64,000 nt of DNA from Candidatus Woesebacteria bacterium (lineage in GTDB: Bacteria; Patescibacteriota; Microgenomatia; UBA1400; UBA1396). Position 1 is the stretch's first letter, and each line of letters starts with the position of its first letter. The notes beneath the pieces are model-generated. The model saw nothing but the letters and a program-made list of their open reading frames with translations. It was not told the DNA's origin and made no database searches. The DNA is taken from positions 4,780-68,779 of the forward strand of contig JAJOJK010000018.1 of NCBI GenBank assembly GCA_021208605.1, given 5' to 3'. Positions 37,163 to 61,702 of the stretch are shown here, piece after piece. A program made the position numbers and the translations under genes.

Positions 37163-37237
37163 AGCCACGGGCGGGATTCGAACCCGCGAATCGAAGGTTT
37201 TGCAGACCTCGCCATTAGACCTCTCTGGTACCGTGGC
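37163..37237 (-). tRNA. tRNA-Cys (anticodon GCA)
   Basis: Minus strand GCCACGG-TA-CCA-GAGAGGTCTAA-TGG-C-GAGGT-CTGCAAA-ACCTT-CGATTC-GCGGG-TTCGAAT-CCCGC-CCGTGGC-T. Seven-bp acceptor stem, T-arm with TTCGAAT loop, anticodon loop CU-GCA-AA; CCA is not encoded. Confidence 0.8.
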
Positions 37238-45673: not shown

Positions 45674-47437
45674 TTGAGGGACAACCAAAATCTGACCCAC
45701 TGCCCACTCTCCTATTATGCTCTGGACCAAATCGGCGTCTTTCGTCATACTACCCACATGCAAGCATTCACCCGGTGGCTGCGTCGCCAGAGTTCCTGGA
45801 TTGAGTCGCAACAGGCCTCAATTCTCTCTGCCGCGACGATAATTTTTGTGGCTAACATGGCCTCGACTCTTGCCGGATTAGTGAAGAATCGTGTCCTCTC
45901 CTCGGTCTATTTCACTCCAGAATTCCAAGGTGGAAATCTCCTGGACGCATATTTTGTAGCCTTCCGGGCCCCTGATTTCGCCTTTAACTTGATTATTCTT
46001 GGTTCGCTCTCGGCTGCTTTTGTACCATTGTTTTCTGCCCGTTACGCCAAAAGTGAAAAAGATGCCTTCCGCTTTGCTAACCAAACGATGTACCTCTTAA
46101 TGAGCGTATTTGTACTCGCCAGCATCGCCATCCTGCTTTTCACTGAACCCTTCGTGCATTTCCTCACCGGTGATGGCTTAACGGACCTGCAAGTCACCGA
46201 AGCCATCTCAATGACACGCATTATGGTTCTGGCGCAGCTTTTCTTTGGATTTTCTGGCTTTATCTCCGCCATGCTACAGAGTGTCAAACGCTTTATTATT
46301 CCGGCATTTAGCCCGCTGTTTTACAACTTTGGCATAATCTTTATGACCGTTTTTGCCCATGACTGGCTCGGAATTCAGGCGGCTGCATGGGGAACAGTGC
46401 TCGGCGCCGGCCTGCACATGGCAGTACAAATCCCACTCTTGCTGAAAATCGGCTACCGACCGTTCATCTGGCCAGAATGGAACTGGGCCGATATGCGAGA
46501 GTTCTTTTCGTTGACAGCACCACGCACTCTGGCTCTCGGCGTTTCTCAGCTGAATCTCTGGGTCATTACCTTCTTTGCCACCGCCATTGGTGGCAATGCG
46601 CTGACCATGATTACGTTCGGTCAGATGCTGATGAACATTCCCATTCGCTTTTTTGGCGTCTCCATTGGCCAGGCTGCGCTTCCGTTTCTGTCCGCCGAAC
46701 AACATGACATTGTTGGCTTCCGACGCACGGTGTATCGATCGTTGCGCCAGATATTCTTCTTTGCTGCTCCGGCCTCGGTACTCTTGCTGATTTTGCGTGT
46801 CCCAGCGGTACGTTTAGCCTACGGAACCCAAGAATTCCCCTGGAGAAATACGCTCATCACGGCGCAAGCGGTGGGAATTCTCGCCGTTTCGATTGCCCCA
46901 CAAGCAGCCACACACCTCTTGATGCGGGCTTTTTATGCCTTAAACAACACCGTTACACCGCTCATCGCGGCCGTTCTGTATCTGGTGGGAACGGCGGCCT
47001 TTGGCTGGTACTTTTCCCTCCAAATGGGGATGGGGCTCAATGGCATAGCCTGGGCACTAACACTCGCCGCCACTCTGGAGACATTCTTTTTACTCTTTGC
47101 TCTCATCTGGAGAATCGGCTTAGGCGATGTGCAAAAACTGTTTTGGTCATTACTTCGTATTACGAGCGCCGCCTTTTTGATGGCTGTCACACTCTTTGTT
47201 TTCCAGCGCTTACTCGATCTGTATGTCTTTGAAACTTCACGTACATTGCAATTGCTCCAACTCACCATGAGCGTAGCCTTGATGGGTGGCGCGGTGTACT
47301 TGATACTCTGTTGGCTTTTCCGTATCGAAGAGCTCACCATTTTGGGCACTATTACGCGTAAGATTCGCCAGAGTTGGAAGAAAGTCAGCAAATCGACACC
47401 GGCATTTTTGGAAACTATTTCTGGATCTGAGTCGTAG
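45674..47437 (+). CDS. murJ: lipid II flippase MurJ (MviN family)
   Basis: 587 aa with ~14 TM segments, MOP/MurJ family; the start may be an internal Met. Confidence 0.85.
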   Translation: MRDNQNLTHCPLSYYALDQIGVFRHTTHMQAFTRWLRRQSSWIESQQASILSAATIIFVANMASTLAGLVKNRVLSSVYFTPEFQGGNLLDAYFVAFRAPDFAFNLIILGSLSAAFVPLFSARYAKSEKDAFRFANQTMYLLMSVFVLASIAILLFTEPFVHFLTGDGLTDLQVTEAISMTRIMVLAQLFFGFSGFISAMLQSVKRFIIPAFSPLFYNFGIIFMTVFAHDWLGIQAAAWGTVLGAGLHMAVQIPLLLKIGYRPFIWPEWNWADMREFFSLTAPRTLALGVSQLNLWVITFFATAIGGNALTMITFGQMLMNIPIRFFGVSIGQAALPFLSAEQHDIVGFRRTVYRSLRQIFFFAAPASVLLLILRVPAVRLAYGTQEFPWRNTLITAQAVGILAVSIAPQAATHLLMRAFYALNNTVTPLIAAVLYLVGTAAFGWYFSLQMGMGLNGIAWALTLAATLETFFLLFALIWRIGLGDVQKLFWSLLRITSAAFLMAVTLFVFQRLLDLYVFETSRTLQLLQLTMSVALMGGAVYLILCWLFRIEELTILGTITRKIRQSWKKVSKSTPAFLETISGSES

Positions 47438-47504
47438 ACTTGAAACGCGTGACCGGCGGGTCCAACCTCTTCACTGTTCTCCATAAAACTTGTTCCCCAA
47501 TCTA

Positions 47505-47537
47505 AAAACGGCCCCGTTTCCGAGGCCGTTTCGTTTT
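47505..47537. terminator. bidirectional terminator between convergent murJ and the pilin P6 gene
   Basis: AAAAACGGCC-CCGTTTCCGA-GGCCGTTTCGTTTTCG hairpin. Confidence 0.55.
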
Positions 47538-47554
47538 CGATTTTCAGCTTACAA

Positions 47555-48010
47555 TTAGTAAGGCTTAATCTGTTGGAGGGTATCACTGATACCAGAGCCA
47601 AAGATGTTAATACCGAAGAAGTAAGCGATAATTTGCATGATCGCGTAGCTGGAAGCAACGATTGCCAAACCGACTAAAGCGGCCGTAATCTTGTTGCGAG
47701 CAGATTCGGTTTTACCCTTGTCACCACCAGAGGTGATCCATTGGATACCACCAAGAATGAGGTAACCAAACACCAAGATAGCAGAGATCAAAAGAGCGGC
47801 ACCAATCGCGCTAGAAAGCAGACGACCAACGTCGGTAATTTTGATATTAGCTTGATCTTGATCCACCGTAACTTGTGGAACACTTTGTGCGAGGGCGGCA
47901 CCAGCAGCGGTTAAGAAACCAACTACGGAACTCCCTGCGGCGACAAGTTTCTTTTTAGTCATACGACTCCTTGTACTGTTTTCTTTTTTCATTATACCAG
48001 TTTTTCTCAA
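47555..48010 (-). CDS. T4SS pilin-like protein P6 (VirB2/TrbC-like, two-helix)
   Basis: 151 aa; a signal-peptide-like N-terminus, then TM-(GGIQWITSGGDKGKTESARNKITAALVGL)-TM. Closest paralog is P5. An extended -10 TGGTATAAT promoter lies upstream. Confidence 0.55.
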   Translation of the reverse strand: MRKTGIMKKENSTRSRMTKKKLVAAGSSVVGFLTAAGAALAQSVPQVTVDQDQANIKITDVGRLLSSAIGAALLISAILVFGYLILGGIQWITSGGDKGKTESARNKITAALVGLAIVASSYAIMQIIAYFFGINIFGSGISDTLQQIKPY

Positions 48011-48074
48011 GTTCTATGGTAGCACAGTCTTTTTTTCTTCGTAAAGACTGAATACCATCTGTGTTCTTCTTTCG

Positions 48075-48653
48075 CTAGCAAGAACTAAAGTCATAGCCAG
48101 GCTTTTCTGCACCCGCTGTTTCGCAGCTACAGGGCTCGTAGTGCGTATAAGGCAACTGAGAAACACCTTGGCCAGGACCAAAGCACTGCACCGTGGCAGC
48201 ACCGGTAGTACAGTATCCGCCGGCTCCGCCGTCGCTGTAAGTGCGACCAATTTCACAACGCACGCCACCGCCGCCTTGAGAGGCTGCGCCAGCTGCTCCT
48301 GCGGCACCACTGCCGCCACCCAACGTGTTTCCACCGCTGTTATCCCCAAGAACATTGATGCCAAAGAAATACTGCACGATAGAAAAGATAGCAAAGACTG
48401 ATACCAAAACTCCTAAGCCAACAATAGATTGAATAATTTTTTCGCGGGCCTTTTCGATCTTGCCTTTATCGCCACCGGAAGTAATCCATTGGACACCTCC
48501 GAGAACCATATAGCCAAAAGCAGCAAGTGCACCCACTAAAATGGCCACTCCAACAAAACTTCCAACAAGGACACCCAGATCCGTCTGAATTGGTGCACCA
48601 CCAATTTGTTGTAAATTCTGAGCGATGTTGACTTCGGCTGTACCTGCAAACAT
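48075..48653 (-). CDS. T4SS pilin-like protein P5 with Gly-rich / six-Cys C-terminal extension
   Basis: 192 aa; core LGGVQWITSGGDKGKIEKAREKIIQSIVGL, plus a C-terminal ...GGGVRCEIGRTYSDGGAGGYCTTGAATVQCFGPGQGVSQLPYTHYEPCSCETAGAEKPGYDFSSC. Confidence 0.55.
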   Translation of the reverse strand: MFAGTAEVNIAQNLQQIGGAPIQTDLGVLVGSFVGVAILVGALAAFGYMVLGGVQWITSGGDKGKIEKAREKIIQSIVGLGVLVSVFAIFSIVQYFFGINVLGDNSGGNTLGGGSGAAGAAGAASQGGGGVRCEIGRTYSDGGAGGYCTTGAATVQCFGPGQGVSQLPYTHYEPCSCETAGAEKPGYDFSSC

Positions 48654-48661
48654 GATTTCTC

Positions 48662-49111
48662 CTACTGTGTTCTTCCTGGTACTGCCCCACTCATTCCTCC
48701 ACTGCCTGGAGCTGACGGTTGACGCAAAGAACCGGCGCCGGATGAGTTCAGCTGATTAATAAACGTTGGATTCAACAGATCGAGTCCAAAAACAGGACCA
48801 ATAAAGGCCGCCACAGCAACCACAGAGGCTAAAACGGCTAAACCAACAATAGATTGAATAATTCGATCGCGTGCTTTTTCTATCTTGCCACTATCTCCAC
48901 CCGCTGTAATCCAGCCAATGGCTCCTAAAAACATGTAGAGCAAAACAGCCAGTCCACCAAGAATTAAAGCGGTTTGAATCAACAAAGCAATGTATAAGCC
49001 AAGAACAGAGGCTCCACCGGAAGCCGTATCTGGCGCGCTAGAGATTACTTGTTCCACCGCTGGAACAGCTGGATTTGTAATACGCTGGGCGAGTAAAGTC
49101 GATAAAATCAT
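48662..49111 (-). CDS. T4SS pilin-like protein P4
   Basis: 149 aa; core LGAIGWITAGGDSGKIEKARDRIIQSIVGL. Confidence 0.55.
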   Translation of the reverse strand: MILSTLLAQRITNPAVPAVEQVISSAPDTASGGASVLGLYIALLIQTALILGGLAVLLYMFLGAIGWITAGGDSGKIEKARDRIIQSIVGLAVLASVVAVAAFIGPVFGLDLLNPTFINQLNSSGAGSLRQPSAPGSGGMSGAVPGRTQ

Positions 49112-49528
49112 TTAGGGTCCTCCTGGGTAGCTAGACGAGCTGGGAATAATTTGTAAGAAGGTTTCGCCAGGGTCCAAAATATTGAGACCGAAGACACCGC
49201 CAACAATGCCAATAATCGCCACCGCCAAAATCATGACGAGCAAACCAATGGCTGCGTTGATCATTTTCTGTTGGGCTTTTTCAACAGCACCCTTGTCGCC
49301 ACCAGCACGGAGCCAGTCGAATCCGGCAATCAATAAGTAGACCACAAAGAAAATGCCGCCGAGAACGGTGATAAAGGCAATAATGTTGGATAGTTGCTCG
49401 GAAAAAAGAGTCACTAATCCTTCACGATCACCGAGGTTGCCAGCTACTTGGTCACCGATGAAGCCAGCGCCGGTAATTGGCTCGTCACCGAGTTGAAGTT
49501 GTTGTCCTTGGGCGAGTAAATTGCTCAT
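49112..49528 (-). CDS. T4SS pilin-like protein P3
   Basis: 138 aa; core IAGFDWLRAGGDKGAVEKAQQKMINAAIGL. Confidence 0.5.
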   Translation of the reverse strand: MSNLLAQGQQLQLGDEPITGAGFIGDQVAGNLGDREGLVTLFSEQLSNIIAFITVLGGIFFVVYLLIAGFDWLRAGGDKGAVEKAQQKMINAAIGLLVMILAVAIIGIVGGVFGLNILDPGETFLQIIPSSSSYPGGP

Positions 49529-49535
49529 ATCTATC

Positions 49536-49901
49536 CTAGTTTCCTACACCTTCGATCACTGGTTGCAAGAGGAAGCGGGCGTCACCAAAGAAGAAGAGTC
49601 CAATGAGCGCGGCCAAAAGTGGCGCGGCGACCATGACTAATAATCCAATAAAGGTATTCGTAATTTTCTGACTCATCTCACCGATCTGCTTGGAGTCTCC
49701 AGGAGAAACGATCACCATGAAGCCAGCAGTCAGAATATTAAACAAAGCCCAAATGCCACCGACGATAGTGACCAAAATAATCAAACGGGAAATAAAACCG
49801 GTAATTCCGGCGCCAGCGCCCAAAACACCGTAGCTATTTTCCACCACGGCTGGCGGGGTAATGGTTCCGAATGGATTGTTTTGTGCTAATAGTTTTCCCA
49901 T
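49536..49901 (-). CDS. T4SS pilin-like protein P2 (divergent)
   Basis: 121 aa; two TM helices flanking SPGDSKQIGEMSQKITNTFIGL. Confidence 0.45.
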   Translation of the reverse strand: MGKLLAQNNPFGTITPPAVVENSYGVLGAGAGITGFISRLIILVTIVGGIWALFNILTAGFMVIVSPGDSKQIGEMSQKITNTFIGLLVMVAAPLLAALIGLFFFGDARFLLQPVIEGVGN

Positions 49902-49908
49902 GATCCTC

Positions 49909-50250
49909 CTAGAATATCTTCACTCCGGTGAGCGCGGCAATAATCTGCATTATCCAGAATGAAGCCAACAATAGTATAAACCCGCCAATGGCGTAGAAAA
50001 AGGCTTTCTTGCCTTCTTCGGCTGCTTTTTTGTTATCGGGATTCATAACCATACGAAAACCGGCGGCAAAAATGAAAATGAAAAGCAAAACACCGGCCAA
50101 CACATAGACGTTGGGCAAAAGAATGTTAATTAACGTAGCAGGAGAGTCATAGACCGAAGCAACCGATGGTCCATCTGGACGGAGAAGATACGATTCACCC
50201 AGGTTTACCTGGGCGACTAAAGTTCGGGTGACGGACGTGATTTCGGCCAT
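49909..50250 (-). CDS. T4SS pilin-like protein P1 (most divergent)
   Basis: 113 aa; two TM helices flanking NPDNKKAAEEGKKAFFYAIGG. Confidence 0.4.
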   Translation of the reverse strand: MAEITSVTRTLVAQVNLGESYLLRPDGPSVASVYDSPATLINILLPNVYVLAGVLLFIFIFAAGFRMVMNPDNKKAAEEGKKAFFYAIGGFILLLASFWIMQIIAALTGVKIF

Positions 50251-50390
50251 TTCCGCTATTGTAGCACGGCCCTTGAGGAAAAGGGGGAATGTTTTTTCAC
50301 AGTTCGTTTCACAGGGGCTTAGTTTCTGACCAGCAAGCCTGTTGATTTACGAACCTGGTTTTCTGTCTTGAAGGCGATATAATTTGGAGG

Positions 50391-53300
50391 ATGGCCATTG
50401 ACTCAACTATACGTATTGAAAGCGTCCAGGAACTCAAGGATCGCTTACGCAGTGCTGGCGTACTTACCAACTGGAAACGCTTTAGCGATTTCTTGGAAGA
50501 ATTTGTTGGCGAAATTGAGAAGGCCGGAGAAAATCCTGAATTCGTCGCCACGATAAGCAGTGAAAAATTCCCCATTGACCTCGCAACACTGAAGTTTCTC
50601 TACGCGTACTTAGGTTCTGGGGACCACTTCGTCCGCGACTTTGCTGAAGAATCCGCTCTCGCCAAAATTCTGGAAATCATCACTGACACCAAACAAAAAT
50701 ATGGCAGTGCACTTGAAGGACTTAGCTCTAACGATACAGTGTCCCGACAGCGCCAAACAGCACTTACCTTCTTCCAACAACTTACCTACGATCTCGAACC
50801 AAGTAATCTCCAAGGAGAGACTGAATCCGAAGGCACTTTTCTTGCCGAAGCGCTACCGGCGGTTTTTGCAGACGATCAAATTCTTCTCAAGGCTGATAAT
50901 CCCAGCCAGGTCAACGCGCTCAAACAGCAAATTGAAGAACAATTCAACGAACTCCGTCAGCTTATCAAGAAGTATGACAGACCAGAAACAATCGAGCTTG
51001 AAACACAAGTAACAACGGCTCTCTCTGCGGCAAGGGCGCAAGCGCAGGCGAATGATGACGAAACGGCTCAACGCCAACTTACTCAAGCCAGTGAAATCCA
51101 GGAAACAGCGCAAAGCCAGCTCCGTGAATCACTCGAGGAGCGCCGAAAAGAACAACTCGACAAGATACGAAATTCGCAAGCTCTCCTTTTCTCTTTGGTT
51201 GAGAAATACTCAGAAGACACTTCATTTGATGAACTGTTCCTTTCTACACTTATTCAATATATTCGGGTCGATCGAATCGATTTTCAAGTCGTGCTCAGCT
51301 TTACCGCTTTCCTTGGATACTTGCGCGACCTCTTCGAGACACTTTTAGCCAACACCCGCGATTTTGTCGAGAAAAAAACGGAAGCATACAAAAAAGAACA
51401 AGCTTCCGCCAAAAAAACTCTTAATCGAGAACTAGCGGCGCTCTTCGACGTTGAACTTCCGCGAGAAGACGATGCCGGCGGTGGCGCGGATGAGGAGCAA
51501 GAAGAGGACGAGTCCACCCTCCTGACAGTCGAAGAATTCCGCACGCGACTCACCGAAGCAGAAGCTTCACTCAACTCGCTGCCGTTAGCAAACGTTGACG
51601 ATCTCAAAGCGGCCCTAGAACTCGAGAGCATTCAGACTGATAAACAAATACACGTTGTCATCGATTCTCTCTTCCAACAAGCCGACACGTTCTCCGACGC
51701 ACAAAGAGCAGCCATCTTACAAAAGCTCACCGCGTATATTGCACGGCTAAAAGCTGATCAAGAAGTTGATGAAGATAAACCAACGGACCGTCCCGAGGCT
51801 CAACCAGACTCCGTTCCCACTGTCACACCAGCTGCAGCCGAAACTGGCACCCAAGAAGAGCAAATCTCCAAACTGCGCCAAGGATCAGAACTCGCCCGCT
51901 TAAATGCATTGTTAGTTGCGCAAGCTGAGGGACAACTGTTTGTTCGCCTCAAGGAACTCGGCTATTCAGAAGAAAAAGCCGAAGAACTTATCGCCGCGTA
52001 TCATGGCGACCTCACTAACCTGATTTGGGCTGAACTCTTAGGCGCCGGCGGATACGCCATGCTCAAGGGTCAACAGACACAGTCACTTGGCGCGGTGGAA
52101 CTGACCCAGATCTGGCCAACGCCACCCAAATTGTTGGTAATGAAATTTTGGTTGCCAATGGCGGAACGTTACCCACCAATTATGGTGGCAATTATGCCTC
52201 GCCAGAACAAATAGCATCGCTCACCGAGAAGACACAATTGGCTGTCGCGCAGGCTGGTTTTGTTGATCCTGACGGGTCCTTGACTTCCCTCACTTCGGCA
52301 CTGGCATTTTTCCAGTCACCAGAGGGATTGCAGCAAATTTTGCAGCTTTCACAAAATGCTGATGTCTTGAATGCTATTCAAAGACAAAGCGGTATTTCCA
52401 GCGATCTTCTCGAGTTGCTGGGTTCGCTTGAGTCCCCAGAAGACATTGATCGGCTGCTACGCTTTGATCCGGAGGCACTGAAAAGCTTATCTCGTGCGGA
52501 GCGCAATGGCGTCAACCAAAAACTGCACCGCTTCATGGATTTGCATACACAAATTCAACAAGTGGGCTTTCTCCCACCTGCTGAACTTGAAGAATACAAT
52601 GCACTCGCCCGCGAAATCGAACCCATTTTCAATATTCTCAATGAGTATGGTGATGATCTGTATCTCTTACTGTACGCGCAACAAGACTTGGCTGACTTAA
52701 GCCAATTCATTCAGCGCGCCGCTCAAACGGAGGCCGCCGTTCAACAACGACTTCCTCAATTTGTGCAACGCGATGTGCAGTACACATCTCGTTTTGCCCA
52801 ATACGCCGTGGTGACAACGACGGTTACTACAACCGTTACCACGACCACCACGGAAATAAGCGAACAAGATCCTTCCTACCTACTCGGCGAAGCCAAAAAT
52901 GATCTGGCGCTCAAGCGCATGATCGCTCTCAGCATGGCCGCGACTCCAGAAGAACAAATGGAGCTGGAACTCCTGCTGCGCCATCCCGAAATGGCTGGTA
53001 TCCAACAAGCGACAGCAGCCGAAGGTGTACCGGCGCTCAATGCGCAAAACCTCTCTCAACAACTCGCTGCCCTGCAACAGAAAAACAGCGGCCTCAACCA
53101 AAAAATCGAAAAGGCCAAAGCCCTGCAAGCGGGCATGAAGGCCCTTATTGCCTCCAAAGGAAATCCTTACTTACTCGCTGCCAACCTGCTTAAAAGCAAA
53201 GAAGGCCGCAAACTCATCATGAAGGCACTTGGGGGCGCTGCCGCTGGCGCTACGGCCACGGTAGCAATTATTTTGGCGCCTCTGATTCAGTTCTATAACG

Positions 53301-54271
53301 CAGTTATTGTGCCAGTCATGAACTTTGTGTCTGGTGTGGTGAGTGGTATTACGGGATTCTTTGGCGGGTTGTTTGGAGGCGGCGGCGCAGCCGCCGCGGG
53401 CAGCGGTATTTCTGGTTCTCTGGGAGCCGGAACGGCGCAAGCCATGACTAACGCGGCCTCAACCGCCAAACTCGCCTCCACGCAAGCAACGGCTCTGGCT
53501 CGGGGAGAAGCGGTAAAGGCCATGACGACCCTGGAAGCACAGGCTAATGCCATTATGTCTGGCACGGTAGTTGCCGAGACAGCAACTGCGGTCATTGCCG
53601 TTGGAGTCATCGGGCCGTTTCTGCTAATCGGAGTTTTGACCTTGATCGTGATCACGGTTATCGGCGCGTCGGTAAACGATATTCCCATGTCTGGTGTGCA
53701 ACGGAGTATTAGTAGCGGTGGACTGGGCGTGGCGGGATGTTGGCCAACGAACGGAAGTATTACTGCTCTTGAAACATACCCAGACGGGCGTCCACACGTA
53801 CGAAGAGATAGTCCAGGAGCTTCTGCCATAGATATAGGTGGAACAACTGGGAATCCTATCTACACCCCGTTTTCTGGTGTAGCTCTCTCTAAATGGGATG
53901 ACGAATACGGAAACATGGTAAGAATCGAAACTGACTATGGATTCACCGTGATTCTTGCTCACATGCTCGAAGCCTGTATTCCATCACAAACAGGTGGTTG
54001 TTTAGCCCCTGATCAGAGTGGACCAGTTACTGCAGGACAACAAGTTGGTTTGCTCGGAAGTACCGGAAATTCGTCAGGACCGCACTTACACTATGAAGTG
54101 TTTAATGTTCCCAGCTCACTCACTACCCGTGATTATGCTATCGCTGATTTAGTGCCGCCAGTTCCTCCTCTTGCAGTCAACGCCGTTGTCTCCACCAGTC
54201 AATGTTCAGTAGGTGGTAACCCGTACAACCCCTCTGCTACTGAGTCTGGTCGAACCAATGATGCACTGTAA
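50391..54271 (+). CDS. giant T4SS-associated protein with an N-terminal coiled-coil region, central TM/Gly-rich segment and C-terminal M23 (LytM) peptidoglycan endopeptidase domain; interrupted by an apparent -1 frameshift near 52095-52100
   Basis: Track ORFs 50391..52214 and 52148..54271 (TTG start). Plausible protein text switches frame between ...QQTQSLGAV and GTDPDLANATQIVGNEILVANGGTL... The M23 motifs are HVRRD (HxxxD) and GSTGNSSGPHLHYEV (HxH). There is a (TTTVTT)n repeat. The architecture is analogous to PrgK/CwlT-type conjugation hydrolases. Confidence 0.7.
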
Positions 54272-54327
54272 AAAAAACATGCAGTACTGCTGACTATGGC
54301 TTACAATGAAACAGGAAGAATAAAAAA

Positions 54328-55371
54328 ATGCCATCGCGAACCAATCAAAAAACACCATCTAGTGCTCTAGGAAATCTCCAAGAAATCTTAGGCATTGGTC
54401 GCCGAGAACAAATTGTTCTTCTTGGCGTTTTAGCGCTCATTATAACCACTGGTATACTCATCTTTTTCCGTCCACGGACTGCATCACAGCCATCTGGAGT
54501 TACTTTCTCAACCTATGAACAGCATGAAGGTAGCATATCTGTTACTTTTACTGGCTCAACCGACGTAACAAAAAATCGATTAGCACTGCAATATATCACC
54601 GACGCCATCGATCAAGAAACACTCCTGCGTACTTTTGCCGGACGACTTGATATGCAAGCACTTCCCAGTTCTCTCACTGGCAACACCTATATCTCTGCCG
54701 ACGGTGTCACGACACTCACCATGGCAAACGGTGATCAAGGCATTATCTATATTAAAAACGGGGCTCTTTCAGAACCACTTACTCCGGTCTCTCTTGAGTT
54801 TGCACAAGAAAGTGCAGAAGAATTTTTAAGCTCTCTAGGATACACGGTAGAAGAACTCAATCTTATCGAAAATGAAACCCAATTCCTTGGCACACAAGTA
54901 GAAGGAAGTGAAGGGTTTCCGCAAGTTCCTGCAGCAGAAGCCAGAATCATCCAACTCTTTTACGAAAAACAACTCAATACTGTTCCAATTGCCTACTCTG
55001 CCAGTGCAGTAGAGAAAATCGCGATCGAAATAACTGCTGATGGTGTCTTCCGCGCAAATCTCCCTAACGTCTTCATCTCCACCGAACCAGGCCGTGAATA
55101 TACCGTCATCTCGGTAGAAAAAGCGCTGGAAAATATAGAAAGTGGTCAATTCTCTATCATTGGTACACCTGGCCGTGTGGAGAAAAGTGATCGCTTTGTC
55201 CGCCTCGATTTAGTGGAACAATCTCTCCAGTATCGCTACGATACTTCTCAAGGGATTCTTTTCCCCATGTTCCGATTCGAAGGAACCGCCATGACAGAAA
55301 GTGGTGAACTCTTTGAGATGGTGGTCGTCACCGAGGCCATAGAAGTGCGCAGTGAAGACATCGAGCAATAA
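54328..55371 (+). CDS. membrane-anchored hypothetical protein of the T4SS locus (347 aa, single N-terminal TM)
   Basis: N-terminal TM (IVLLGVLALIITTGILIFF), then a soluble alpha/beta region; position is analogous to the VirB8/ConB-like bitopic proteins. Confidence 0.4.
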   Translation: MPSRTNQKTPSSALGNLQEILGIGRREQIVLLGVLALIITTGILIFFRPRTASQPSGVTFSTYEQHEGSISVTFTGSTDVTKNRLALQYITDAIDQETLLRTFAGRLDMQALPSSLTGNTYISADGVTTLTMANGDQGIIYIKNGALSEPLTPVSLEFAQESAEEFLSSLGYTVEELNLIENETQFLGTQVEGSEGFPQVPAAEARIIQLFYEKQLNTVPIAYSASAVEKIAIEITADGVFRANLPNVFISTEPGREYTVISVEKALENIESGQFSIIGTPGRVEKSDRFVRLDLVEQSLQYRYDTSQGILFPMFRFEGTAMTESGELFEMVVVTEAIEVRSEDIEQ

Positions 55372-55421
55372 TGATAGAGTAGATATACGCTACAAAACAC
55401 GGCGCCACCGCACCTATCAAC

Positions 55422-56696
55422 ATGATCGAACACCCAGTTCCACAGAACATCACTGAGTATCAGTTCCATCTGATCGGCAACATGACGATCAAGCAGTTTA
55501 TTATTCTGCTGGTTGGTGTGGTGTTGGCGTTCATGTTTTACAGCACCAACTTACCCGGAATTATTAAGTGGCCGTTTATGCTGGTTATCGTGGGAGGCTC
55601 TGGTGCACTGGCTTTTGTACCGTATGAAGAGCGCACACTCGATCAGTGGCTGGTGAATTTTATTCGCGCTATCTACCGTCCCACCAAATACTACTGGCAA
55701 CGCACAGCGCCAACTCCTGGGTACTTCACGCATGAAGTCACCCAAAGCCAAGCGCTGAGCACTGGCCAAGAACGCTCGACGCTCCCACAGCGCCAGAAAC
55801 AATTCTCGGCGTATATGTCCTCATTGCAAACCCAGTCTCAAGGCCCGGTATCGCAGGATCCTTTGGATCTTTTTCAAGGAGCTACTGGCGATCTCAGCTC
55901 ACTGTTTGACTCGGTAGAAGCGGCCGAAAACGTTGTCCCTGGAGAAACCATGGCCATGGAAAAACCGAACTTGCAGGTTCGTGCCCGCCCACTAGGCAGC
56001 GGACAGAACATGGTCTTTGATACCAAAATTGACACTACTCCCGGAGACGACCTTGCGACTCCAACATCCACTCCGGCCGCCGCCACCGCCCAATGGGGGA
56101 ACTCGTATGGCGGAAACGACACTTATAGCACCTTCACCATAGACTCCGTACAAGAATCAAAACACTCTCAACAGGAAGATGCCACGCCATCAGCACCTCG
56201 CGGGCAAGCCGCCACAACAGATGTCCAGACTATCTCGGTGCCCAGATCGGCACCCACCAAGACAGAAGTCACCCAGCCTGAAACGAGCGCTGCGCAGTCT
56301 GCAACCAAGACCGACAACGAACCCACTGGAAACGCCTACGTAACCGAGAGCTCTGTGCAGCGCGCGCCGCAGCACGCTGCGGCGCCCATCCCCGTCCCCT
56401 TCAACAAAGATCTGCCGTTCCCGTCTTTGCCGGATAAGCCGAACTTGCTTTTGGGAATGGTCCACGATCAGCAGAAAAATATTATTCCGGGCGCTATCGT
56501 CGAGATTTTGGATGAAAATGGCAACACGGTCCGCGCCATGAAAACCAACAATCTTGGTCAATTCTATATTTCTACTCCCCTGCAAACAGGAAAATACACG
56601 ATCGAAACCGAAGCCAATGGGCATGAATTTCCGGTCTTTGCTCTCGAAGTAGACGGTTCCGTGCTCGATCCGGTGGACATTCTTGCTCAAACCTAA
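55422..56696 (+). CDS. PrgI/VirB3-like two-TM protein fused to a C-terminal beta-sandwich (carboxypeptidase-regulatory-like) domain
   Basis: N-terminus TIKQFIILLVGVVLAFMFY...IKWPFMLVIVGGSGALAFVPYEERTLDQWL, a long disordered middle, and C-terminal IIPGAIVEILDENGNTVRAMKTNNLGQFYISTPLQTGKYTIE. Confidence 0.4.
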   Translation: MIEHPVPQNITEYQFHLIGNMTIKQFIILLVGVVLAFMFYSTNLPGIIKWPFMLVIVGGSGALAFVPYEERTLDQWLVNFIRAIYRPTKYYWQRTAPTPGYFTHEVTQSQALSTGQERSTLPQRQKQFSAYMSSLQTQSQGPVSQDPLDLFQGATGDLSSLFDSVEAAENVVPGETMAMEKPNLQVRARPLGSGQNMVFDTKIDTTPGDDLATPTSTPAAATAQWGNSYGGNDTYSTFTIDSVQESKHSQQEDATPSAPRGQAATTDVQTISVPRSAPTKTEVTQPETSAAQSATKTDNEPTGNAYVTESSVQRAPQHAAAPIPVPFNKDLPFPSLPDKPNLLLGMVHDQQKNIIPGAIVEILDENGNTVRAMKTNNLGQFYISTPLQTGKYTIETEANGHEFPVFALEVDGSVLDPVDILAQT

Positions 56697-56748
56697 AAAA
56701 GTGTTCAACTCGTGACGAATCCCGACAAAACTCGTATACTGGAAACGC

Positions 56749-57681
56749 ATGCCTAACTCCCAAGGACAGCTCTCATCAACTTCTCAAAAATATCTTGAGA
56801 TTCTGGATATCACCAACGACCTACTGGTCATGAAAGATGGCTCGACGGCTGTCGTCCTTGAAGTTAGCGCCATCAACTTCGGCCTTTTGTCCGAGCCAGA
56901 ACAAGACGCCATTATTTATGCGTATGCGGCTCTCATAAACTCGCTCTCGTTCCCAATTCAGATTGCCATTATTTCTCGTCCCAAAGATGTCAGTAACTAC
57001 TTGGAATATGTTGACGAACAATTCCAAACTGCCACGTCGGACCTTCGTCGTCAACAAATCGCCAGCTACCGCCAGTTTGTTTCCAATTTAATTACAGAGC
57101 AAAACGTCTTGGATAAAAACTTTTATGTCATTTTGCCACTTTCGGCTATTGAACTTGGTATTGCTGACTCAGTGAATCCCATGAAACAAGTCATGCCGAG
57201 CGATAAACCAGCTGAGTTTGACAAAAATTCGGTCATCCAACGCTCGGTCAACACACTGGGCCCGCGTCGTGATCATATGATTAGTCAGTTCAGCCGCTTT
57301 GGACTTCGCGCCGAGCAACTCCGCACCAAAGATCTGATCCAACTGTTTTACATTATGTACAACTCGCAATCAGCCGAAGGTATCAAAGTGGTGGACACCA
57401 AAGAATACACCAGCGCCGTCATTCAGCCGCGCGGAAATTTCCAGGTTCCTACCGCAGCACCAGAGGTCGCAACCGCACCACCAACGCAGACCACCCCGGC
57501 AGCCCCAGAGCCAACACCTCCTGCGGCAAGTGCTCCACAAGCTGTCCCCGTAGAAATTCCTTCTGAAGACACCACATCAGAAGTGTCTTCCCTCGAAAAC
57601 GCCATGTCCTCCATTCCCCGCGAAGGTGTCGGCCTGAACGTGGACGCTACCAACACCGACGACAACCAACCACCACGATAA
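56749..57681 (+). CDS. T4SS-associated protein resembling the VirB4/TrbE N-terminal (CagE_TrbE_VirB-like) domain, with Pro/Thr-rich tail
   Basis: LEILDITNDLLVMKDGSTAVVLEVSAINFGLLSEPEQDAIIYAYAALINSLSFPIQIAIISRP pattern; C-terminal PTAAPEVATAPPTQTTPAAPEPTPPAASAP. Confidence 0.35.
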   Translation: MPNSQGQLSSTSQKYLEILDITNDLLVMKDGSTAVVLEVSAINFGLLSEPEQDAIIYAYAALINSLSFPIQIAIISRPKDVSNYLEYVDEQFQTATSDLRRQQIASYRQFVSNLITEQNVLDKNFYVILPLSAIELGIADSVNPMKQVMPSDKPAEFDKNSVIQRSVNTLGPRRDHMISQFSRFGLRAEQLRTKDLIQLFYIMYNSQSAEGIKVVDTKEYTSAVIQPRGNFQVPTAAPEVATAPPTQTTPAAPEPTPPAASAPQAVPVEIPSEDTTSEVSSLENAMSSIPREGVGLNVDATNTDDNQPPR

Positions 57682-57687
57682 GGAACT

Positions 57688-60162
57688 ATGGCGAGCTTTT
57701 TAGAACGCATCGGACTGAAAAAACCATCTTCCACTCAGGGAGACGACGCGCAGACGCAAAAAAAGCAGCAACTCAATGCGCAAATGCAGCAATTTTCGCA
57801 AGGTCTGGTGAGCATTCAAGATATTATTGCTCCAGAGGCGATTGAGGTCGACTTCACCTACCAAAAAATCAATGACACGTTCACTCGCACCCTGTTTATC
57901 GCTGGTTATCCTCGCATGGTGCCAGCCAACTGGCTCTCACCATTAATTAACTTCCCGTACTCTCTGGACGTCTCGATGCACATCACCCCAGTCGACGTCA
58001 AAGAGATTCTGCACGACTTGCGTCGAAAAATTACTGAAATGGAAGCGGAAATTTCTTCTGATATCCGTTCCGGGAAAATCAGTAATATCGACACCGAGAT
58101 CAAACTCGAAGACGCCAAAGCCATTCAGGAACAACTCGCCAAGGGCGCCGAGAGGTTTTATCAGTTTGGTTTGTACGTCACGATTAACTCGCCGAATGTA
58201 GAAGAACTGGATAACGTCACGAAACAGTTACAGTCACTGCTTGGCTCGATGCTGTTAATCTCCAAAAAATCTTCGCTGCAAATGGACGAGGGTTATAAAA
58301 CTACATTGCCGATGGGTCAGGATAAACTCAAGATTCTGCGCAATATGGACACCACTTCTCTGGCCACTACTTTTCCGTTCACTTCGTCTGAGCTCACCAT
58401 GGACAAAGGTATCGTCTACGGCCTGAACGAGCACAACGGCTCGCTGATTATTTTCGACCGCTTCCAGATGGAAAACGCCAACATGGTGGTGTTCGCGAAA
58501 TCCGGTGCTGGTAAATCCTACGCCGTGAAACTCGAAGCCCTGCGCCACATGATGTTCGGCGCCGAAGTCTTGATTCTTGACCCGGAAAAAGAGTATGAGG
58601 ACATGGCGGCATCTGTTGGTGGCGAGTACATTAACTTTGCCTTTGGCTCCAACACCAAAATCAATCCGTTTGATTTGTCCCAAGTCTACGAAGAAGGTGA
58701 AAACGAACTCGGCCAAAAAATTATTTCGCTCCACGCGCTTCTCAAAGTGATGCTCGGAGAAATGAACGCTTCTCAAGAAGCCATGCTCGACCGCGCGCTC
58801 GTGGCTACTTACAAAGCCAAGGGCATTACGCCTGATCCGTCCACGCAAAACAAAGAACCGCCGCTCATGGAAGACCTCTACAAAGCCCTGATCGGTATGG
58901 AAAACGACGACGCCTACGACATTGCCATGCGTCTGGAAAAATACATTAAGGGTTCTTTCCGCGGCATTTTCGACCAACACACCAACATCGACATCCGCAA
59001 CCAGATGACGGTCTTCTCAGTTCGCGACATCGAAGACGAACTCCGTCCGGTAGCCATGTTCATGATTCTCGACTTTATCTGGACGCGTATCCGCAAAGAG
59101 CGCAAAAAGCGCGTTTTGGTTGTTGATGAGGCCTGGTACTTCATGAAGCACCAAGACACTGCTTCCTTCATGCACTCGATCGCCAAACGTGCCCGGAAAT
59201 ACTACCTCGGCGTCACCACCATCACGCAGGACGTGGAAGACTTCATGCACAGCGACTACGGCAAAGCGATTGTGACTAACGCCTCCATGCAGCTATTGCT
59301 GAAACAATCTTCGGCCGCTATTCCCGTGTTGGCCGACACCTTCTATTTGTCGGAAGGTGAGCAGCGTCTACTCATGGCCGCCGACGTCGGTGAGGGTCTC
59401 TTCTTTGCTGGTCAAAATCATGTGGCCATGCGTATTATGGCCTCTCCAGAGGAGCACGTGGTGATCACCACCAACCCACAAGAGTTAGAACAAATTAACA
59501 AAGCCAAACAGCAGCAGCAACAGCAAATTCAACAAACCACGCAGGCTTTGAAGCAGCAGAATCTGCCGCAAGATAATTACCAGGAAGAAATTCCCGACCA
59601 AACGCAAACCGCCTTTGCCGGCCAACCAGGCCAATACGCCGACCCGAACCAGGGCATGCCGCAAAACCAAGGACAAGCGCAGATGAATCCCCAGATGAAC
59701 CCGCAAATGGGGCAACCGATGAATCAGATGGGGCAAATGCAGCCTGGTCAGATGCAGCCTGGTCAGATGGACCAAATGGGACAACCAATGGCGCAACAAA
59801 TCGGTCAACAGCAATACATGGCAAACGGACAAATGATGCCGGGACAGATGCCGCAGCAGCCCCTGCCAGGTCAATATGGTGATCCGAATCAGATGGCTCA
59901 GGGGCAAGCGCCGCAAATGGCACAAATGCCAGCAAATCAGCCAGCACCGGGTCAGTATCCGCAACAACAGCAGCCGATGATGCAGCCAGGAATGGCGCCA
60001 AATGGCAGTTATCAGCAACAATATGCCGCCCCGCCACAAGAGCAACAAGCGTATCCGTCCCAAATGCCGCCAGCAATGAACGGGCAAATGCCGCAATCCG
60101 GAATGCCAAATCAAGGGGCGCAACTTACACCAACACCGGTACCGCAGGATCAGGGACGATAA
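57688..60162 (+). CDS. virB4: VirB4/ConE/TraE-family conjugative T4SS ATPase with ~220-aa Gln/Met/Pro-rich C-terminal tail
   Basis: 824 aa; N-terminal IAPEAIEVDFTYQKINDTFTRTLFIAGYPR (Gram-positive VirB4 signature), Walker A VVFAKSGAGKSY, ILDPEKEY, Walker B VLVVDEAWYF...TTITQ. The tail reads QQQQQIQQTTQALKQQN...MNPQMNPQMGQPMNQMGQMQPGQMQPGQM... Confidence 0.85.
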   Translation: MASFLERIGLKKPSSTQGDDAQTQKKQQLNAQMQQFSQGLVSIQDIIAPEAIEVDFTYQKINDTFTRTLFIAGYPRMVPANWLSPLINFPYSLDVSMHITPVDVKEILHDLRRKITEMEAEISSDIRSGKISNIDTEIKLEDAKAIQEQLAKGAERFYQFGLYVTINSPNVEELDNVTKQLQSLLGSMLLISKKSSLQMDEGYKTTLPMGQDKLKILRNMDTTSLATTFPFTSSELTMDKGIVYGLNEHNGSLIIFDRFQMENANMVVFAKSGAGKSYAVKLEALRHMMFGAEVLILDPEKEYEDMAASVGGEYINFAFGSNTKINPFDLSQVYEEGENELGQKIISLHALLKVMLGEMNASQEAMLDRALVATYKAKGITPDPSTQNKEPPLMEDLYKALIGMENDDAYDIAMRLEKYIKGSFRGIFDQHTNIDIRNQMTVFSVRDIEDELRPVAMFMILDFIWTRIRKERKKRVLVVDEAWYFMKHQDTASFMHSIAKRARKYYLGVTTITQDVEDFMHSDYGKAIVTNASMQLLLKQSSAAIPVLADTFYLSEGEQRLLMAADVGEGLFFAGQNHVAMRIMASPEEHVVITTNPQELEQINKAKQQQQQQIQQTTQALKQQNLPQDNYQEEIPDQTQTAFAGQPGQYADPNQGMPQNQGQAQMNPQMNPQMGQPMNQMGQMQPGQMQPGQMDQMGQPMAQQIGQQQYMANGQMMPGQMPQQPLPGQYGDPNQMAQGQAPQMAQMPANQPAPGQYPQQQQPMMQPGMAPNGSYQQQYAAPPQEQQAYPSQMPPAMNGQMPQSGMPNQGAQLTPTPVPQDQGR

Positions 60163-60170
60163 ATCTTTTT

Positions 60171-60776
60171 GTGGAAAAAATGAGTATGGATACCGACTCG
60201 CTCTCCCGCATGCAGCAAGAAAACGAGCTGCTTATTGCCGTCAACTCGGACAATGAACCGCTCTTTCCAGTAGAGAAAATTGCCGCTCACCAAAAACCTG
60301 GTCAGTTGCATCGTGCTATCACTCTGTTTCTCTTTTCTCCGACCGGAAAAATATTAGTCACGCAACGCAGTGCCCAAAAACCGCTCTGGCCAAAGTGGTG
60401 GGACGCCGCAGCCTCTACCCACCAGTGGTGGCCGGATGAGGATGCCGTGGCATGTGCCCAGCGTCGTCTCCCTTTCGAACTCGGAATCGACGTAAGCCTG
60501 GTTGCGAATTGGCAAGAACGCTTCCACTACGAATACCACGTCACGTACGACGAAACCTGGTCAGAAAATGAAATTAATTTTATTGTTACGGCACAAATTC
60601 CAAATGAAGAGGCTTTAGAGAGCGTGGAAGCACAACTCAAGAATCGCAATACTGATGAAGTCGCCGCCTATGAATGGCTTGCTGCTGAAGACATTGCGAG
60701 AGAACTCAAATATGATCAACATCGATTTGCGCCTTGGTTTCCGTTGGCTTTTGAAAAAATTCCACTGAGGGTCTAA
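60171..60776 (+). CDS. idi: NUDIX hydrolase, isopentenyl-diphosphate delta-isomerase type 1-like
   Basis: 201 aa; HRAITLFLFSPTGKILVTQRSAQKPLWPKWWD... aligns to IDI-1 (HRAFSVFLFN...RSDTKLTFPGVW). The position of the catalytic Cys is AASTHQ rather than NSVCGHP, so activity is uncertain. Confidence 0.6.
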   Translation: MEKMSMDTDSLSRMQQENELLIAVNSDNEPLFPVEKIAAHQKPGQLHRAITLFLFSPTGKILVTQRSAQKPLWPKWWDAAASTHQWWPDEDAVACAQRRLPFELGIDVSLVANWQERFHYEYHVTYDETWSENEINFIVTAQIPNEEALESVEAQLKNRNTDEVAAYEWLAAEDIARELKYDQHRFAPWFPLAFEKIPLRV

Positions 60777-60791
60777 CCCTCCGGTTTTTTT
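60767..60791 (+). terminator. terminator-like hairpin GAGGGTCTAACCCTCCGG plus T7 after the idi-like gene
   Basis: Stem GAGGG/CCCTC followed by TTTTTTT. A near-identical copy GAGGGTCCGACCCTCCGA lies at ~60836-60853, just upstream of the -10 TATACT of the next gene. Confidence 0.5.
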
Positions 60792-60873
60792 CTCCTACTT
60801 TTGTACTTGGTCCAGACAACAACGTCCCTATAAGAGAGGGTCCGACCCTCCGAAACAGTGCTATACTCACCCT

Positions 60874-61683
60874 ATGCCAAAATCCGTCACGCTCATAAAA
60901 CTCGGTGGCTCCACCATTACGGATAAATCAATTCCGAACGCTGTTCGCCACGAAACGCTCAGAAGGCTGCTCTCCGAAATCCAAAGAGCCTACCAGGAAA
61001 ATCCTGGCTATTTGGTCATTGGCCATGGTTCAGGCAGCTTCGCGCATGTTCCTGCCACACGCTACCGCACAGCGGAAGGCTTTGTTGGTCCGCAGTCGCG
61101 CCTGGGTATGGCGATCACGCAAGACTCGGCGGCGCAGCTCAACCGTATCGTCGTAAAAGAAATGCTCAAACTGGATCTTCCAGCGGTCTCGTTGTATGCC
61201 TCAAACTCACTGGTAACAAAGAAAGGTCAGGCCGAAAGTTACTTTGTTGATGTCTTCAAAGAGTACTTGCGAAACGACCTTATCCCGGTTATCTCTGGTG
61301 ATGTCATCGTGGACTCGGAACAAGGCTGTTGTATCTGGTCAGCTGACACGATTTTGCCATTTTTTGCGCTCGAGTTTAAAAAGCACAACTGGCACGTCAA
61401 TAAACTCATTCACGTCACCCGTACTCCTGGTGTGTATCGCGACATTAACAACCCTGATGCCGGTATTTTTGAGCATATTACTCCTGATAACGCCACCGAA
61501 GTCCAAGCAGCTATGGGCGAAGTAAAAGGGTTCGACGTTACCGGCGGCATGTGGACGAAAATTTCCGAAAGCCTCGAATTGGCAAAAGCTGGCGTAGACT
61601 CGGTTATTTTGTCAGGCGAAAAACCTGGTGCCCTCTATGACGCGCTCACTGGAAAAGCGGAAGGCACCACGATTTCCGCCTAG
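60874..61683 (+). CDS. isopentenyl phosphate kinase (amino-acid-kinase family)
   Basis: 269 aa; LIKLGGSTITDK, VIGHGSGSFAH, VISGDVIVD motifs typical of IPK from alternative/archaeal-type mevalonate pathways. Confidence 0.75.
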   Translation: MPKSVTLIKLGGSTITDKSIPNAVRHETLRRLLSEIQRAYQENPGYLVIGHGSGSFAHVPATRYRTAEGFVGPQSRLGMAITQDSAAQLNRIVVKEMLKLDLPAVSLYASNSLVTKKGQAESYFVDVFKEYLRNDLIPVISGDVIVDSEQGCCIWSADTILPFFALEFKKHNWHVNKLIHVTRTPGVYRDINNPDAGIFEHITPDNATEVQAAMGEVKGFDVTGGMWTKISESLELAKAGVDSVILSGEKPGALYDALTGKAEGTTISA

Positions 61684-61702
61684 GATCTGGTATTCTTAAA
61701 TC

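Follow-up and report, generated by a model that had tools for sequence, protein, structure and literature searches.

A tandem array of VirB2-like pilins in a probable relaxase-less type IV secretion locus of a Woesebacteria-type chromosome

What does a secretion apparatus of conjugative type, accompanied by a whole series of pilin genes, do on the chromosome of an ultra-small bacterium? The question is raised by the region 47555-60162 of a 64-kb stretch of DNA (called the window here; assembly GCA_021208605.1, with proteins annotated as "Candidatus Woesebacteria bacterium" under LRY65 locus tags), in which a minus-strand pilin operon diverges from a plus-strand operon encoding the machinery of a type IV secretion system (T4SS). 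An earlier note on this DNA had expected such an apparatus to be something other than a plasmid-transfer machine, and both the family searches and the literature (PMC10633639, PMC12102498, PMC12857230) agreed with this. The sequence analysed here was the window together with ~4.5 kb beyond its end, the latter being read from sister assemblies. Gene content and family assignments point to a Gram-positive-type T4SS, similar to the FATA class of mating-pair formation systems (MPF-FATA), in the chromosome of an ultra-small Patescibacterium with a Microgenomatia/Woesebacteria-type genome. We consider it highly probable that the locus is a chromosomal, relaxase-less T4SS with a tandem VirB2-like pilin array, of a type already described for Patescibacteria (candidate phyla radiation, CPR). 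This confidence covers the identification and the general model; it is much lower for any specific substrate or transport direction. Given its chromosomal location, and with neither a relaxase nor a coupling protein close by, the locus probably does not serve plasmid transfer. It adds nothing categorically new and is a clean Microgenomatia example of a published system.

The pilin operon was found to contain six consecutive open reading frames (ORFs) on the minus strand, P6 to P1, separated by gaps of 64, 8, 0, 7 and 7 nt in that order. The ORFs and their hydrophobicity bore out the six proteins of 113-192 aa with a two-helix layout that the earlier note had described. P1 (pilin class 1; 49909..50250, 113 aa) opens the array and is its most divergent member, with transmembrane (TM) helices at residues 43-61 and 92-110 and the loop PDNKKAAEEGKK. 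P2 (class 2; 49536..49901, 121 aa) begins with MGKLLAQ, P3 (class 3; 49112..49528, 138 aa) carries the loop WLRAGGDKGAVEKA, and P4 (class 4; 48662..49111, 149 aa) has the loop WITAGGDSGKIEKA and a Ser/Gly-rich C-tail, the length of which varies among genomes. P5 (class 5; 48075..48653, 192 aa) consists of a hairpin, a Gly-rich linker and a six-cysteine C-terminal domain. P6 (class 6; 47555..48010) is an ORF of 151 aa, and its true start is most likely Met17 at 47962, giving 135 aa as in the NCBI annotation. In each of these proteins two strongly hydrophobic helices surround a short K/R-rich loop. The motif W-[IL]-[TR]-[SA]-G-G-D-[KS]-G-[KA]-x-E-K-A, previously ascribed to four of the loops, is matched at every position by P3, P4 and P5, and P6 departs from it once (TESA).

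The best Pfam match of all six proteins was PF18895 (T4SS_pilin), with E-values from 2e-4 to 6e-8. With a gathering cut-off of 26.6 bits, P1 (E 1.9e-7, 31.5 bits), P3 (E 5.8e-8, 33.1 bits) and P5 (E 2.3e-6, 28.0 bits) lie above it, and P2 (E 1.8e-5, 25.2 bits), P4 (E 2.7e-5, 24.6 bits) and P6 (E 1.6e-4, 22.1 bits) lie below. Because six adjacent genes match one small family, we do not take these matches for chance. Many homologs of the pilins are labelled PF18895 in the precomputed annotation, and the orthologs of P6 are labelled PF26067. When four of the pilins (P1, P3, P5 and P6) were scanned against NCBIfam, the sole match of each was the Mbov_0395 pilin-like family (NF045849; E 1e-6 to 4.5e-5, 23-28 bits, cut-off 40), and PHROGs gave no match for the pilins or for the bitopic protein of the machinery operon. 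Thus, the VirB2-like identity proposed earlier was upheld by the common best match to PF18895. The assignment places them, as far as profiles can tell, in PF18895, which is a sister family of PF04956 (TrbC/VirB2).

P1-P5 have no leader peptide, few positive charges in their N-tails and a basic loop, and for these reasons an N-out, C-out, loop-in topology is predicted. VirB2 and TraA have this same topology. A Sec-type signal peptide (…AAGAALA|QSVPQ) was seen in P6 alone, which has three hydrophobic segments including the N-terminal one. P1-P4, a seventh pilin described below and many P5-type homologs start with M-x(1-13)-[LIV]-[LVI]-A-Q (MGKLLAQ, MSNLLAQ, MILSTLLAQ, …SRLLAQ). These starts are located at 49880-49901, 49507-49528, 49085-49111 and 50209-50250 of the window and in 16812-17219 of L055, and the intergene gaps of 0-8 nt leave no space for a longer leader on pilins of this type. 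The signal peptide of P6 likewise ends in ALA|Q. The VirB2 T-pilin is processed at an A|Q site, which the AQ starts recall.

The count of six pilins was right for the array and incomplete for the locus. In the sister sequence L055 a seventh PF18895 pilin of 135 aa was found (L055 16812-17219), which in the numbering of the window would occupy about 67685-68092, ~3.7 kb beyond its end. It follows a mevalonate operon, stands ~7.5 kb 3' of virB4 and is divergent from a SpoIID-domain gene; the six-pilin array itself lies 7.4-10 kb upstream of virB4. The seventh pilin is an ortholog of the "position 7" pilins in the related loci L025 and L053 (43-48% identity), and its nearest class in the window is P1. 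As a separate observation, nine terminator-like hairpins were found in 47300-50700, where shuffled sequences gave 3.6 ± 1.9, and most of them lie inside the pilin coding sequence on the minus strand.

The machinery operon, on the plus strand, ends with a VirB4-type ATPase of 824 aa (57688..60162), which matched the NCBIfam model conju_CD1110 with 393.7 bits (cut-off 325) as well as the Pfam families P-loop_TraG and AAA_10, and in which Walker A (KSGAGKS) and Walker B (VLVVDEAW) are intact. The CD1110 score and the Walker motifs indicate affinity to MPF-FATA systems, a statement that concerns family scores and not phylogeny. The C-tail of the ATPase (~200 aa, ~59560-60159) is of low complexity and rich in Q, P, M and G; the VirB4 of L001 (801 aa) has this tail as well, and those of L002 and L025 (648-650 aa) lack it. 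Homologs of TrsD and PrgI/VirB3 stand directly upstream of virB4. The TrsD/TraC-like protein (56749..57681, 310 aa) resembles the N-terminal domain of VirB4 and lacks the ATPase domain; it matched NCBIfam TrsD/TraD (E 8.5e-10) and positions 112-233 of the Mycoplasma integrative and conjugative element (ICE) VirB4 model, both below cut-off, and is labelled PF26593 TraC-like in the precomputed annotation. The PrgI/VirB3-like protein (55422..56696, 424 aa) matched PF12666 PrgI (E 2.6e-11, 44.3 bits, cut-off 27). Its two TM helices (21-39 and 47-65) are followed by a long linker rich in S, T, Q and P and, at the C-terminus, by a transthyretin-like beta-sandwich, which matched PF13620 CarboxypepD_reg (E 3.8e-8, 34 bits, cut-off 32.3). 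These three genes therefore carry the identities that had been read from the letters alone, namely a VirB4 ATPase, a protein like the VirB4 N-terminus and a PrgI/VirB3-like protein with a beta-sandwich. The bitopic membrane protein (54328..55371, 347 aa) has its TM helix at 29-47, as expected earlier, and three alpha/beta units outside the membrane. No family match was obtained for it, and the word-indexed homolog search gave seven close relatives; the model built on seven sequences was weak (predicted local distance difference test, pLDDT, 64).

The first gene of the machinery operon encodes a giant envelope protein (50391..54271), which is 1293 aa long after frame repair. It has no signal peptide and starts with an acidic and helical part of ~945 aa, for which neither a PDB sequence match nor a credible Pfam match was found. 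Hydrophobic segments at ~950-990 and 1055-1091 follow, and then an extracytoplasmic M23 domain at the C-terminus (E 3.8e-15, 56 bits); the protein also contains the stretch VVTTTVTTTVTTTTTE. With M23 placed after the last TM segment, it resembles the membrane-anchored extracytoplasmic hydrolases of the VirB1/PrgK/TraG/CwlT type, and no SLT, CHAP or NlpC/P60 domain was found in it. The M23 domain matched TagE and ShyA in the PDB, PHROGs matched the protein in its M23 part only, and the domain is flanked by a conserved pair of cysteines (GCWP…C). In related loci the protein is encoded by single ORFs of 949-1419 aa, and M23 is present in 8 of 10 homologs, to which L004 and L008 add a NAGPA glycosidase domain. 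The homologs in L001 and L002 have a differing C-terminus without any family match, and the L001 domain carries an HETSH motif. The C-terminal enzyme module is thus exchanged between lineages. The giant protein is also the fastest-evolving gene of the locus, with 34-37% identity to its L001 homolog where VirB4 has 86% (L001 2896-6981; L004 1768-6006). Apart from this, its layout of a long helical part, TM segments and M23 recalls the M23-bearing tape-measure proteins of phages.

The closest described counterpart is the T4SS of Southlakia epibionticum, which was reported as essential, resembling Gram-positive conjugative systems, with a predicted pilin series and without coupling protein or relaxase (Wang et al, 2023, Cell; PMC10633639); the requirement for epibiotic growth was established by transposon sequencing in S. 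epibionticum ML1 only (PMC10633639). Like the ML1 cluster (SEML1_0006-0019) and other Patescibacteria T4SSs, the locus studied here is chromosomal and has an MPF-FATA-like VirB4 adjoined by TrsD and PrgI/VirB3 homologs, a pilin series (six in Southlakia), a peptidoglycan hydrolase in the cluster and no adjoining relaxase or coupling protein. The two differ in class, Southlakia belonging to Saccharimonadia and this genome to Microgenomatia/Woesebacteria. Furthermore, the hydrolase here is the M23 end of a 1293-aa protein divergent from the pilins, whereas in Southlakia a peptidase and a lysozyme are encoded by genes of their own, downstream of virB4; the conserved six-cysteine domain of one pilin class here is a further difference, as is the position of the seventh pilin apart from the array, beyond the mevalonate operon. 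A survey of the whole phylum recovered the VirB4 proteins of Patescibacteria as a clade with affinity to MPF-FATA, found genes for TrsD and PrgI/VirB3 homologs in linkage with virB4, identified VirB1 candidates with M23 domains, and encountered VirB6 only rarely in Microgenomatia (Quiñonero-Coronel et al, 2025; PMC12102498). The same survey counted 441 VirB2 arrays of 2-11 genes in 383 assemblies, notably of Microgenomatia and Saccharimonadia, with a mean identity of 25% and a maximum of 54%, a range that includes the present array (24-27% mean, 48% maximum), and its authors proposed possible host-range versatility for such arrays (PMC12102498). A 2025 FEMS review regards these systems as an exception among monoderm T4SSs in having VirB2-like pilins (PMC12857230).

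With the MPF-FATA systems of pCF10 (Prg), pIP501 (Tra), pGO1 (Trs), CTn2/CD1110 and ICEBs1 (Con), the locus shares a CD1110-family VirB4, a PrgI-type VirB3, a TrsD-type protein akin to the VirB4 N-terminus, a membrane-anchored wall hydrolase (PrgK, TraG, CwlT) and the lack of an outer-membrane core. PrgK also has a LytM/M23-type domain. Those systems are plasmid- or ICE-borne with relaxase, type IV coupling protein and oriT, unlike this one, and the window is without SLT, CHAP, a PrgB-type adhesin or a recognisable VirB6 (PrgH/ConG) or VirB8 (PrgL/TraM). They also have adhesins instead of VirB2 pilins (PMC12102498, PMC12857230), whereas seven pilins are present here. The T4SSs of Bartonella, Anaplasma and Rickettsia similarly combine tandem or scattered divergent VirB2 copies with a non-conjugative role in host interaction, but they are diderm MPF-T systems whose paralogs are thought to be antigenic variants, in contrast to the fixed orthologous classes of a monoderm-type system here. 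The Mbov_0395 pilin-like proteins of Mycoplasma ICEs are likewise small two-helix proteins encoded beside an MPF-FATA VirB4; these ICEs are mobile and are not known to carry more than one Mbov_0395 copy, in contrast to the array here. Given the Mbov_0395 match, VirB2-like small proteins may already exist in some MPF-FATA systems, a point relevant to the proposal in the literature that diderm T4SSs were the source from which CPR pilins were co-opted.

From these components the following working model can be drawn. The MPF-FATA-type VirB4, its TrsD/TraC-like partner and the PrgI/VirB3-like anchor would energise assembly at the cytoplasmic membrane, where the seven VirB2-like pilins would be inserted with both termini outside and the basic loop inside. 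VirB4 with its TrsD-like and PrgI-like partners would extract the membrane-inserted pilins and polymerise them into a pilus or an envelope-spanning conduit. The giant protein would set its M23 endopeptidase outside the membrane to open a cell wall, either the bacterium's own or the host's, and the bitopic protein, with its PepSY/YycI-like units, could be a part of the extracytoplasmic scaffold. The pilin classes would hold distinct structural roles, such as major and minor subunits, base and tip, instead of being variants able to replace one another, and the disulfide-bonded C-terminal domain of P5 would be exposed outside the cell. Because no relaxase, coupling protein or integrase is found nearby, the machine is most likely to serve episymbiotic host interaction, through contact or through export or import of macromolecules, rather than conjugation. 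Gene content, family assignments, synteny, orthology and the predicted topology come from the analysis itself; pilus formation, the division of labour among pilins, wall cutting and the role in host interaction are what we infer. In Patescibacteria, a very large and mostly uncultured group, few machines are known to be indispensable for epibiotic life, and the T4SS is one of them.

Several observations weigh against this interpretation or narrow it. Half of the six pilins fall a little short of the PF18895 cut-off, and the match to the PF04956 TrbC/VirB2 profile that the earlier note had proposed to look for did not appear in any of the six at a significant level (best P6, E 0.22, 12 bits, cut-off 27.9). 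No clear VirB8 was seen in the window, the model of the bitopic protein being of low confidence. No VirB6-type protein, for which at least five TM helices encoded in the cluster would be expected, was detected either, as no protein in 47555-60162 exceeds three to four hydrophobic segments and no VirB6 or PrgH match was obtained; this is in line with the rarity of VirB6 reported for Microgenomatia (PMC12102498). Throughout the M23 subfamily the first zinc-ligand His is off the canonical HxxxD spacing, so that catalytic activity is uncertain, even though the HxH motif, the Asp and one internal His have been conserved. The giant gene is frameshifted in three of four assemblies, that is, in the window and in two of its three sisters. 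Neither relaxase nor VirD4, VirB6 or integrase was found among the large ORFs of the window and the genes called to ~4.5 kb beyond it, the first three having been noted as missing from the window before; a relaxase, VirD4 or VirB6 may still be encoded elsewhere in the genome. Finally, the function of CPR T4SSs has been called "completely unknown" (PMC11665869), and the literature consulted contains neither an image of a pilus of the CPR T4SS type nor experiments on this lineage.

The absence of relaxase and coupling protein would also fit a non-export role, and the system could be a ComB-like inward machine that imports DNA, nucleotides or other host material via a pilus. We consider this unlikely as a specific reading. 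In its favour, genomes of this type lack many biosynthetic routes, the T4SS has been named as a candidate for nucleotide acquisition since comEC is dispensable and the T4SS essential in Southlakia (PMC11665869), and the VirB4 is weakly similar to the archaeal DNA importer CedB (NCBIfam E 9e-11). However, the CedB match is far under its cut-off and much weaker than those to conjugative VirB4 families, no ComB- or Ced-specific partners were found, and the direction of transport cannot be read from sequence.

A further question is why there should be so many pilins. The array might be a variation device, in which recent duplicates have been diversified by host-driven selection for antigenic or host-range variation, as the earlier note suggested and as has been put forward by analogy with Bartonella and Anaplasma (PMC12102498). 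The copies are indeed very divergent, with 14-48% identity, the P4 and P5 C-tails vary in length or presence between genomes, and neighbouring copies are the most alike, indicating tandem duplication at the origin of the array. From the P6 side the adjacent pairs share 48, 36, 32, 32.5 and 19% identity, and non-adjacent pairs 14-30%. The gradient claimed before was therefore confirmed as a neighbour effect, and P6 and P5, which had been called near-identical, share only 48% over 115 aligned columns. In DNA, copies are alike (72-76%) only over 85-144 nt of their cores, on which grounds recent duplication or gene conversion among them was rejected, and no long repeats or conversion tracts were found among the pilin copies.

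The array was also compared with related loci. A scan with VirB4, taking one genome per species, gave 53 loci, all of which appear, by those record titles that are informative, to be metagenome-assembled genomes (MAGs) of Patescibacteria, the lineages named in them being Woesebacteria, Pacebacteria, Microgenomates, Paceibacterota and Moraniibacteria; many of the other titles seem to be wrong labels. The closest loci, with 65-97% identity in the best segment, are of Woesebacteria, Pacebacteria and Microgenomates type, and VirB4 of the Moraniibacteria and Parcubacteria types has ~45% identity. In four loci of conserved order (L001, L002, L025 and L053) VirB4 is 83-86% identical to that of the window in full-length alignment. 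The pilin array diverges there from the genes for the giant protein, the bitopic protein, PrgI, TrsD, VirB4 and Idi in the same order, except that no homolog of the bitopic protein was detected in L001. In all four, the best match of each window pilin is the pilin at the same array position (51-77% identity), including for the divergent P1, and a neighbour-joining tree of 31 pilins grouped them strictly by array position and not by genome. Orthologs share 51-68% identity on average (61% for P2, 58% for P3, 60% for P4 and 68% for P6, the best conserved class), as against a mean of 24% and a maximum of 48% for paralogs within a genome. Moreover, the pilins diverge no faster than a housekeeping protein, the comparison with L001 giving 71-77% for pilins and 75% for Idi, and the fast-evolving parts of the locus are the giant and bitopic proteins instead. 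The pilins are old, fixed, position-specific orthologous classes, found 1:1 and in the same order across four other MAG lineages. With this, serial duplication for antigenic or host-range variation is left as a quite improbable account of the array, and host specificity should rather be sought in the giant hydrolase and the bitopic protein. Because the classes are old and position-specific, distinct structural roles for the pilins are suggested, and the locus sharpens the view of such paralogs as anciently separated classes rather than a variation cassette. Among more distant relatives (L003-L028, VirB4 ~65-76%), the machinery genes are syntenic and our own pilin profile (hidden Markov model) found no array in the available upstream sequence of up to 10 kb, so the divergent arrangement seems either specific to a subclade or accompanied, in those genomes, by pilins too divergent for the profile.

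One of these classes carries an additional domain. The earlier note had seen a Gly-rich tail with six cysteines in P5 and thought of a disulfide-stabilised structure, and the tail proved to contain a C-terminal domain of ~65 aa with six cysteines at 48078-48281. In an alignment of 36 full-length P5 homologs C147, C156 and C176 are invariant, C174 and C191 are conserved in at least 90%, and the first cysteine (~C133) occurs in most but not all; the consensus following the Gly-rich linker is NDGGAGGYC…C…YxH[WYF]EPCxC…FSSC. The AlphaFold2 model consists of a hairpin (residues 25-57 and 62-96, pLDDT ~89), a disordered linker (105-129, pLDDT <50) and a small beta-containing domain (130-191, pLDDT 89-95). 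A Foldseek search of this model against the PDB returned nothing at E <1, the only relevant weak match being the conjugative pilus of Aeropyrum pernix (8dfu, TM-score 0.62 on the target). An exhaustive HMMER search with the 68-aa domain gave 17 cluster representatives, nearly all of them proteins of 170-240 aa carrying the P5-type domain at the C-terminus. Because it occurs almost solely at the C-terminus of pilin-sized proteins the domain is taken as pilin-specific, and because the predicted topology is C-out it would be extracellular. Of the four related loci, L001 and L053 encode the tail and L002 and L025 do not. Taken together, the conservation and the confident model support a folded, pilin-specific domain and, with it, the idea of a disulfide-stabilised extracellular tail, which makes this pilin class an obvious candidate for a host-contact module. 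Neither the six-cysteine domain nor the position-specific orthology of the pilins was found described in the CPR T4SS literature consulted (Wang et al, 2023; Quiñonero-Coronel et al, 2025; the FEMS review), nor did the literature consulted contain an account of how the giant M23 protein is built or how rapidly it evolves.

A more specific version of the working model can be imagined, which we regard as speculative and rather doubtful in its details. All seven classes would co-assemble in fixed roles into a heteromeric filament or conduit, like the major and minor pilins of type IV pili, with P6 as the bulk subunit and the P5 domain recognising the host at the surface or tip; [LIV][LV]AQ would be a processing site comparable to the A|Q site of the T-pilin, and the 945-aa part of the giant protein would dock substrates in place of the missing coupling protein. 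To our knowledge, no T4SS has been described whose VirB2-type pilus is made of several pilins and has an adhesin domain built in.

If the machine were instead a part of an ordinary ICE, its relaxase, coupling protein and integrase would have to lie outside the window, and this appears very improbable. In its favour, the VirB4 family takes its name from conjugative transfer (CD1110), TrsD and PrgI belong to the equipment of Gram-positive plasmids, and relaxases do occur in Patescibacteria, though in a minority of them (109 homologs in 103 genomes; PMC12102498); in that survey, however, relaxases stood near virB4 in only 15 cases. Neither relaxase (MOB), coupling protein, integrase or replication module nor a tRNA-flanked boundary was found in the 64 kb and the ~4.5 kb of downstream genes; the single tRNA of the window (Cys, 37162-37237) is 10 kb away from the locus and not in a boundary position. 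The surroundings are those of a core chromosome. PBP1a, a GH18 protein, S20 and MurJ adjoin the array upstream, a mevalonate-pathway operon follows directly 3' of virB4, and every scanned ORF of at least 300 aa outside the T4SS locus is a core gene. Among the genes of the remaining window are dnaX, rpoA, secY, EF-Tu, EF-G, rpoB, rpoC, groEL, ddl, LDH and cytidylate kinase. GC content is uniform across the locus (0.47-0.52) and like that of the remaining window. Furthermore, Idi directly after virB4 is kept in L001, L002, L025 and L053, and the persistence of this neighbourhood where Idi is only 37-75% identical argues for vertical inheritance.

The integrity of the giant gene had to be considered as well, since in the window the ~1290-aa protein of the earlier note is split into two ORFs in different frames, 50391-52214 (607 aa) and 52148-54271 (707 aa). 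Three sister assemblies of the same organism were obtained by exact protein look-up, and in one of them (GCA_021208925.1) the gene is intact with 1293 aa and ends in M23 as predicted. A one-base deletion was located at 52113-52115, where the window reads CTGGCC and GCA_021208925.1 reads CTGGGCC; tblastn with the intact L001 homolog puts the frame change at ~52115, and inserting one G restores a stop-free ORF of 1293 aa. That the frameshift is real and the locus a decaying, pseudogenised remnant is hardly credible and was rejected, as the split in the window and two of three sisters is outweighed by four sequences that differ over 13.1 kb by 3-5 single-base gaps and no mismatches, by one intact assembly, by breaks that fall in different genes in different assemblies and in rpoB too, and by the intact and conserved state of all other genes of the locus. 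Scattered single-base gaps are typical of homopolymer indel errors. Because different genes break in different assemblies and rpoB is split as well, the frameshift is most likely such an error of assembly. The genes affected in the sister assemblies are the mevalonate diphosphate decarboxylase (MVD) gene in L055, the SpoIID protein in L054 and L056, and VirB4 in its length in L056 (855 aa, probably through an indel). In the window, rpoB consists of two overlapping ORFs in differing frames (31980-32025), rpoC of two ORFs 41 nt apart (27668-27710), and the LDH ORF (39659-40279) is without most of its N-terminal domain, which suggests homopolymer indel errors across the assembly, such that split genes should not be read as biology without a check of the reads.

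The mevalonate operon between virB4 and the seventh pilin (window 60171-64000; L055 9313-16760) encodes a NUDIX/Idi-like protein, isopentenyl phosphate kinase, mevalonate diphosphate decarboxylase, thiolase, an HMG-CoA synthase-like protein, HMG-CoA reductase and a prenyltransferase. At the other end, the pilin and machinery operons are separated by a divergent intergenic region of 140 nt (50251..50390), in which a sigma-70 scan found no consensus promoter pair and in which a TATAAT sequence stands at 50378-50383, 8 nt ahead of the ATG.

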